From a virus (Monodnaviria; Loebvirae; Hofneiviricota; Faserviricetes; Tubulavirales; Inoviridae): DNA of 29,483 nucleotides. Shown here piece by piece: positions 7,375 through 7,597 of the stretch. Each line of letters starts with the position of its first letter. Position 1 is the first letter of the stretch. A program made the position numbers and the translations under genes. The notes below the pieces were generated by a model. That model saw nothing but the letters and a program-made list of their open reading frames with translations. It was not told the DNA's origin and did not search any database. Where the stretch lies: IMG/VR virus record IMGVR_UViG_2851976983_000002; one strand, written 5' to 3'.

Positions 7375-7597
7375 GTGTGTGATGATGTCCGTCAGGACAT
7401 GTAAGGCGGCATGATGAAGTTTCATGTGACGCAGATGTCAGCCCGCCGAAACCGGGGAGAGATGACAGAGCAGCAGGAAACAGCGCAACGCGCCGCCTGC
7501 CAGACCGCCTTTTAGCGGGCAGCCAGCGAGACGAGCGGCGCAAGACGGGAGTCGGACAGTCATTGATGAAGCCGTTCGATGGAATTGATGACTGACA
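7375..7597. other. Structured intergenic region after gene IV (candidate packaging signal / minus-strand origin)
   Basis: Several inverted repeats, e.g. ATGTCC-gtca-GGACAT at 7385..7400; analogous position to the Ff intergenic region. Confidence 0.3.

Follow-up and report, generated by a model that had tools for sequence, protein, structure and literature searches.

Two cis-acting sites lie directly after gene IV in the plus-strand intergenic region of the Ff phages: hairpin A, at which assembly starts, and the minus-strand origin, formed by hairpins B and C, at which RNA polymerase makes the primer. Priming by RNA polymerase is, to our knowledge, the only mechanism established for the filamentous phages of Escherichia coli. 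Plasmid R1 carries a G4-like signal, the G site, about 400 bp downstream of oriR, where primase alone starts the leading strand in a rifampicin-resistant reaction; Masai and Arai in 1989 and Bernander and colleagues in 1992 are said to have described this site of R1 and R100 as a primase-dependent leading-strand start. The complementary-strand origin of the icosahedral single-stranded DNA phage G4 itself is defined by three stem-loops on DNA coated with SSB, requires no protein besides primase and SSB, and has its primer start at the T of a 5′-CTG-3′ just 3′ of the stem-loops (PMC6783573). In the G4 sequence this CTG follows stem-loop I after 3 nt. For the integrative inoviruses of Xanthomonas, packaging signals have been described as GC-rich hairpins of 20–26 nt with a conserved stem sequence (bioRxiv 10.1101/2023.12.30.573655). 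Here we compare with these systems a noncoding segment that follows gene IV in an array of filamentous prophages of E. coli.

A conserved module downstream of gene IV

The stretch of DNA that was analyzed (hereafter the window; 29,483 nt, IMG/VR record IMGVR_UViG_2851976983_000002) is a head-to-tail array of filamentous prophages in the order A-A-B-B, and the chromosome of E. coli strain 503025 matches it at 100% identity. In that strain the array adjoins the ydeP/ydeQRS/hipB region, where the chromosome map places dif, and a dif sequence is present at the right end of the array; the prophages occupy the dif site of E. coli. Their genes run in the order regulator(s), rep, small genes, coat genes, zot, and secretin. 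The B units, which come after the A units and have a period of 8043 nt, share with them a common part (2588–7864) that holds the structural genes and the module described below and is 97% identical. The rep genes differ (994–2220, 408 aa, in A; 17246–18373, 375 aa, in B), the regulatory regions are also unlike, and the prophages are modular chimeras with joints near 2588 and 7864. We call the secretin gene gene IV because it gives weak but clear tblastn matches to the pIV proteins of f1, If1, and I2-2, and because RefSeq names its product GspD.

An earlier note, made from the letters of the window, had singled out 7375–7597 as hairpin-rich and as a candidate packaging signal or minus-strand origin by analogy with Ff. 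As it stated, the segment follows gene IV, which ends just upstream. The units and the conserved module that we delimit within them are listed here.

1–8270: unit A, first copy
8271–16540: unit A, second copy, an identical repeat of 1–8270
6154–7374: gene IV (secretin; RefSeq name GspD; tblastn to pIV)
7382–7598, plus strand: the whole conserved noncoding module of the first A unit, starting 8 nt past the gene IV stop codon
15652–15868, plus strand: the module of the second A unit, 100% identical
23963–24179, plus strand: the module of the B unit, 214 of 223 positions identical over 7375–7597, without indels

Conservation between A and B, which the earlier note had also asserted, is borne out: the second A copy agrees at 223 of 223 positions, and the B counterpart of the segment, at 23956–24178, departs from A at 9 of them (96% identity). 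Homologues extend well outside the array. When the segment was compared by blastn with 5426 complete E. coli genomes, 67 genomes matched, with identities from 100% down to about 71%, and an nhmmer profile placed the module at 42 places with E-values of 1e-50 to 1e-66. Homology to the diverged inoviruses begins near 7385 and ends at 7598. Beyond the module these phages can hardly be aligned as DNA; across them the module is 71–79% identical, while the Zot protein is no more than 26–36% identical and pIV 43–54%, and one lineage of relatives has no match at all to the Zot of the window. The only other noncoding piece conserved across diverged phages in the way that the module is conserved is a hairpin at 8172–8267. 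As these alignments have it, the module is a discrete unit and the best-conserved DNA of these phages.

In relatives the module usually starts 7–138 nt past gene IV; in one lineage it comes directly after traX, and gene IV lies 2.2–2.5 kb further on. At every locus that has a gene IV match the module is co-oriented with gene IV, and it therefore sits on the packaged plus strand, that is, on the strand that needs priming. Twenty-four distinct phage sequences were aligned, part of them added by a pattern scan of viral and metagenome contigs in which the bait was the invariant block ACAGCGCAACGCGCC-N-CCTG, whose apparent invariance is thereby inflated. A scan of genome contigs with pIV as the query returned a single locus.

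Several observations on the distribution of the module and its parts deserve mention. A profile search of oral inoviruses, whose pIV is 47% identical, found the module absent. In one of these genomes from an oral metagenome (Inovirus D_HF5_61, our L100), ATGC-CAC-GCAT followed by GTAAGGCGC...GCGCCGGAAAC occurs at about 2295–2370, some 120–190 nt past gene IV, an arrangement loosely like hairpin P1 and stem P2 of the module (see below). The profile search has no hit at this place, and the likeness, which could reflect distant homology or coincidence, is treated as a lead only. In one lineage (L010, L014, L032, and L033) the 3′ tail of the module recurs once or twice downstream. The extra tails of L010, at 3505–3553 and 3844–3892, fall within the 5′ parts of two small annotated minus-strand ORFs of equal length (3323–3574 and 3662–3913). 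In E. coli A37, a truncated mini-prophage at dif (L013, 1494–3404) is reduced to regulatory genes on the minus strand, a piece from the 3′ end of gene IV, the module, and the attP hairpin, and plasmid pUTAK-3 (L018, 1620–3224) carries a gene IV fragment with the module in duplicate.

A conserved protein-coding gene was considered and rejected. We regard the module as noncoding because lineages differ inside it by 1-nt indels, because its variable columns show no three-base periodicity (p 0.37–0.83), because the annotation of ORFs over it is inconsistent among genomes in strand, frame, and length, and because the 41-aa ORF that RefSeq lists as WP_001413216 (7438–7563, minus strand; also 15708–15833) has lost its start codon in the B copy, where CAT has become CAG. 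This hypothetical protein is probably spurious.

Folding, predicted structure, and the attachment site

Folded as single-stranded DNA, 7375–7597 reaches −39.9 kcal/mol. Dinucleotide shuffles give −33.5 ± 3.5 (z −1.84), with 8 of 200 at least as stable, and on energy alone the description of the segment as hairpin-rich does not hold beyond chance. When the phage unit is scanned 110 nt at a time (mean −11.4, sd 4.7), the segment lies near −20 kcal/mol, the level of the GC-rich zot and gene IV coding DNA at 5500–6000, and 8161–8270 stands far apart at −43.7. Neither the single-strand fold nor the scan reveals an extended hairpin in 7375–7597, where the longest supported stems have 5–10 pairs; the earlier note had named the lack of a stable extended hairpin upon folding as a result that would refute its proposal, and on this count the packaging option, drawn from the Ff hairpin, fails. 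Structure is more pronounced in the 5′ part, 7380–7500 (z −2.98), which a single one of 200 shuffles equals. The complementary strand of the module folds equally well, and the count of G-T against A-C combinations (44 versus 31) does not settle the strand.

Since the folding energy alone is ordinary for the G+C content, the structure that we propose rests on comparison. Two pairings of the minimum-energy fold were rejected on these grounds. The fold does pair GC-rich stretches within 7490–7540, as the earlier note had anticipated, but its GCGCCGC/GCGGCGC pairing lacks comparative support (column 126 of alignment A2 varies with no compensation). The pairing of GGCGGC (7405–10) with GCCGCC (7492–97) likewise has variable partners that are uncompensated. 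The elements of the proposed structure are these.

7385–7400, plus strand: hairpin P1, an ATG-stem, a loop of 3–6 nt, and a stem-CAT
7405–7447, plus strand: P2-closed domain, with P2 stem GGCGG/CCGCC (7405–09/7443–47) enclosing P3 and P4
7410–7426 and 7427–7440, plus strand: hairpins P3 and P4, partly kept (87% and 73% of cells paired)
7479–7499, plus strand: invariant block ACAGCGCAACGCGCC-N-CCTG, comprising H4, a 3-nt spacer, and the CTG at 7497–7499
7483–7493, plus strand: predicted mini-hairpin H4 (GCGC-AAC-GCGC), which never varies
7497–7522, plus strand: hairpin H5, with outer stem CTGC/GCAG, inner stem CCGC/GCGG, and a T-rich loop
7530–7553, plus strand: hairpin H6, GAC-GA-ACG-G-C[GCAA]G-A-CGT-GA-GTC
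7556–7598, plus strand: 3′ tail of TGATG and TTGATG repeats, with the end ACTGACAG; conserved

P1 is the inverted repeat ATGTCC-GTCA-GGACAT, located at 7385–7400 exactly as the earlier note had it; the CATGA/TCATG repeat is present too, but one base away from the range given for it (7410–7414 and 7422–7426). In every variant P1 forms a perfect hairpin, through eight distinct stems of 5 to 7 pairs in phages and plasmids, among them TCC/GGA, CCC/GGG, CC/GG, CCGC/GCGG, CCG/CGG, and CGC/GCG. P2 is paired in 24 of 24 sequences, six of which have a G-C to C-G swap at 7408/7444. In H6, 98% of cells are paired and all departures are G-T pairs; the variable positions are symmetric about the loop, which reads GCAA in 19 of 24 sequences, and the purine-purine pair at 7538/7545 is G,A in 14 sequences and A,G in the other 10, with nothing else occurring. 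The outer stem of H5 is 95% paired, and its inner stem is variable, with a double compensation to CCAT/ATGG in L017. The block ACAGCGCAACGCGCC-N-CCTG, itself partly the search bait, is near-invariant in the 24 phage sequences, and its B copy has one change, ACC for ACA.

Taken as a whole, the proposed structure has 89% of cells paired, compared with 28–40% when the partners are slid by 1–3 columns. Five pairs are changed on both sides; most helices are simply invariant, and covariation, P1 aside, is thin. The comparisons support P1 strongly, and P2 and H6 moderately; elsewhere in the module structure is merely permitted by the sequences. Judging from the variants of the P1 stem, the P2 swap, the G·A/A·G covariation in H6, and the overall level of pairing, the structure of the module is under selection.

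The extended hairpin that the module lacks is found further on. At 8170–8269 (also 16440–16539, with the B version near 24470–24565), a hairpin of about 100 nt folds at −44.7 kcal/mol (z −11.2) and is 91–96% conserved in otherwise diverged phages. Both of its arms are dif-like (GTGCGCA(T/C)AA ... TTATGT), and the 5′ arm bears a 6-nt bulge, TGTTAC. In strain 503025 the array ends on the right (L001, 29141–29168) with the phage XerC arm AGTGCGCATAA fused to TGTATA-TTATGTTAAAT, which is the central region and XerD arm of the chromosomal E. coli dif. Because this joint is the expected product of XerCD integrating a folded single-stranded attP, the hairpin looks like an attP of the CTX type, integrated as that of the CTX phage is; given the dif-like arms and the dif joint, the sole Ff-like extended hairpin of the intergenic region is an attachment site.

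The tip of this hairpin, 8203–8243 (AAAAGGCCGCTGCG, an 11-nt loop, and CGCAGCGGCCTTTTT), resembles an intrinsic terminator acting in both directions, placed between the plus-strand structural operon and the minus-strand regulatory genes; our terminator scan missed it because its loop exceeds 8 nt. Between the module and the attP hairpin lie tandem direct repeats of about 270–310 nt, 7597–7864 and 7865–8174, roughly 85% identical, each of which begins AGGCCGTCTTTT..GAGCCGGAATTTTCAA and contains a terminator-like hairpin with a T-run (7772–7813 and 8074–8120). The repeat is present in a single copy in the B unit (24178–24466) and is missing from many relatives. These repeats might hold the plus-strand origin.

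A related element on IncF plasmids

The first 75 nt of the module (7382–7456), which comprise P1 and the P2 domain, match a plasmid element at 77% identity (alignment z = 20.7). With the plasmid version as the query, more than 5000 plasmid records are found, mostly IncF. Eight plasmids were inspected, representing E. coli IncFII/IncFIC, Klebsiella, Salmonella, Yersinia pestis pCRY, and Serratia. In seven of them a repA-family gene is annotated about 640–970 nt upstream, and the matching strand of the element is antisense to repA; the eighth stretch, from Salmonella (L098), has no annotated repA within it. A DnaA box lies about 650 nt upstream of the element in five of the eight (L019, L093, L094, and L095, all four with an annotated IncFII repA, and L098), and the plasmid CTG is about 550 nt from the DnaA box.

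This element may be the G site of R1 and R100. If the R1 fork travels away from repA, the plasmid counterpart of the phage viral strand would be the leading-strand template downstream of oriR. Replication of R1 is unidirectional from oriR (PMC4999828). The active strand would thus be, in phage and plasmid alike, the one that needs priming: the viral strand in the former and the leading-strand template in the latter.

Phage and plasmid versions have in common the P1 hairpin, the P2 stem, and a CTG at a like offset. Plasmid P1 covaries also (ATGCGC/GCGCAT and ATGCCGC/GCGGCAT). In seven of seven plasmid sequences scanned, CTG occurs within CCCTGC(C/A)A.. at an offset of 96–106 from the anchor CATG(T/G)AAGGCGG; the invariant CTG of the phages is at offset 99, and the 11-mer CCTGCCAGACC that surrounds it is identical in phage and plasmid. 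The plasmid CTG is an observation independent of the search pattern that contained the invariant block. The two versions differ in the middle, where plasmids have a CCGGC-GTAA-GCCGG hairpin and a pyrimidine-rich spacer, whereas phages have GGGAGAG, a variable stretch, and the invariant ACAGCGCAACGCGCC hairpin; the further 100 nt of the phage module, comprising H5, H6, and the tail, are absent from plasmids. The CCGGC-GTAA-GCCGG hairpin stands right after the shared domain in six of the seven plasmid sequences (at 1270–1290 in L094; pCRY is the exception) and agrees with stem-loop I of G4 in 11 of 12 positions (CGGCG[A/T]AAGCCG). In three of the seven, TA-CTG comes next and could serve as another start for primase.

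Proposed initiation of the complementary strand and competing explanations

We consider it an even bet, on comparative grounds, that 7382–7598 is a complementary (minus)-strand origin, a single-strand initiation signal in the packaged plus strand. This reading is favored because a conserved noncoding module of fixed orientation combines compensatory changes with an invariant CTG and homology to the IncF element. It is one of the two options raised in the earlier note and the one that our results support best, although the grounds for it, being comparative, were not available to the reader of a single sequence. Since an invariant CTG after a GC-rich hairpin is a hallmark of G4, an origin of the primase type is favored in turn. 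By this analogy the origin is probably one at which DnaG primes at T7498, a more specific proposal whose chances we put a little short of even.

The resemblance to the G4 origin lies in stem-loops on the viral strand, a GC-rich hairpin with a small A-rich loop, a 3-nt spacer, and the CTG; by our own counts, the distance from AAGG to CTG is about 94 nt in the module and about 105 nt in G4. Stem-loops of the kind that define the G4 origin are predicted for P1, the P2 domain, and H4, with compensatory changes in P1 and P2 only, H4 being invariant. The two differ in that the CTG of the module lies within the H5 stem and is followed by further conserved hairpins, and in that the phages are filamentous here and icosahedral there. 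Local alignment detects no significant sequence similarity to the G4 origin in either the phage module (z −0.5) or the plasmid element (z +0.4), so the likeness is one of architecture and not a demonstrated relationship.

If the minus-strand origin works in this way, SSB would coat the DNA after infection except at P1, the P2-closed domain, and H4, and the structure formed by these elements would position the host primase DnaG. DnaG would start the RNA primer at T7498 of 5′-CTG-3′ and copy the invariant block leftwards; the predicted primer has pppA opposite T7498 and the sequence AGGCGGCGCGUUGCGCUGU. DNA polymerase III would then make the circle double-stranded, giving the replicative form. 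The 5′ domain and CTG would be the same cassette that lies on the leading-strand template of IncF plasmids downstream of oriR, and the phage-specific 3′ half (H5, H6, and the TGATG tail) might provide either an additional structure for the phasing of primase and SSB or a short packaging hairpin.

The last of these possibilities leads to the view, unlikely in our estimation, that the module is a packaging signal, in which one conserved hairpin, most plausibly H6, would be bound by the tip proteins and start assembly like hairpin A of Ff. The module occupies the position of the Ff signal, directly after gene IV, its orientation is fixed, its 3′ half is absent from plasmids, and the record of phage I2-2 annotates a "morphogenetic signal" adjoining gene IV. 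[quoted passage not shown] However, the module contains no extended hairpin like the 60–78 nt of the Ff signal and bears no similarity to known packaging signals, and its 5′ domain recurs in thousands of plasmids, which do not undergo packaging into filaments. The analogy with Ff that the earlier note had drawn for packaging suffers further in that the only long hairpin, 570 nt further on, is a dif-like Xer site. Moreover, the module keeps its identity where Zot/pI falls to 26–36% or becomes undetectable, and conservation in the face of so diverged a Zot fits recognition by host factors better than recognition by co-evolving phage proteins. A short packaging hairpin in the 3′ half is possible, and both functions might be combined in the module. 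A minus-strand origin of the Ff kind, with hairpins that mimic a promoter and a primer made by RNA polymerase, would share with Ff both the task and the place, the plus-strand intergenic region after gene IV; the module does contain several hairpins, and priming by RNA polymerase is how E. coli filamentous phages are known to proceed. Yet a scan of 7375–7600 finds no sigma-70-like promoter with −35/−10-like hexamers, the module is G+C-rich with no AT-rich stretch, and blastn against 50,697 phage records, Ff, IKe, I2-2, and If1 included, gives no DNA match. For these reasons an origin of the Ff kind is less likely than one of the primase type, and the priming enzyme is probably a different one. 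The invariant CTG also counts against it, as does the location of the IncF homologue, in a region where rifampicin-resistant priming by primase alone is reported. We judge it decidedly unlikely.

Two explanations that assign the module no part in priming or packaging can be set beside these. The module lies upstream of the first plus-strand terminator-like hairpins, those within the downstream repeats, and so probably forms the 3′ end of the gene IV transcript; it could then be an RNA-level element, either a structured 3′ untranslated region concerned with stability, processing, or a small RNA, or else a small gene on the minus strand, which is often stop-free across the module and holds the 41-aa RefSeq ORF. 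We find this improbable: no Rfam family matches the segment above threshold, the indels, missing periodicity, and lost start codon speak against a gene, as do annotations that vary in strand and frame, and in plasmids the homologous strand is antisense to all neighboring genes, which argues for a role at the level of DNA. More improbable still is an accessory sequence for Xer integration, or an inactive conserved joint at which phage modules recombine. In most relatives the module is indeed only 45–110 nt from the dif-like hairpin, and homology between lineages breaks exactly at the ends of the module, but in the window the module and the hairpin are separated by 570 nt, the plasmid copies adjoin oriR with no dif-like site noticed in the plasmid sequence inspected, and the compensatory changes and invariant blocks point to selection on the structure of the module itself.

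The cis-acting sites of integrative filamentous phages outside the Ff group, minus-strand origins and packaging signals alike, are mostly unmapped. For the dif prophages of enterotoxigenic and other E. coli, the analysis supplies a precise candidate of 215 nt with a predicted primer start at T7498, and this is the fragment to include in phagemids or minimal replicons built from these phages. If the primase reading is true, the filamentous phages of E. coli use at least two unrelated priming strategies, and a priming cassette is common to plasmids and phages. We may go one step further and speculate, while thinking it rather unlikely, that a priming cassette of about 120 nt (P1, the P2 domain, H4, and CTG) has been exchanged between IncF-type plasmids and the dif-integrating inoviruses of enterobacteria, that the minus strand of the latter is primed by DnaG, like that of G4 and unlike that of Ff with its RNA polymerase, and that H6, with its GCAA loop and three G·A pairs, is a new kind of short packaging signal. 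Were this so, the 215-nt module would be a complete "convert and package" unit, able to make a phagemid for these prophages out of any plasmid.
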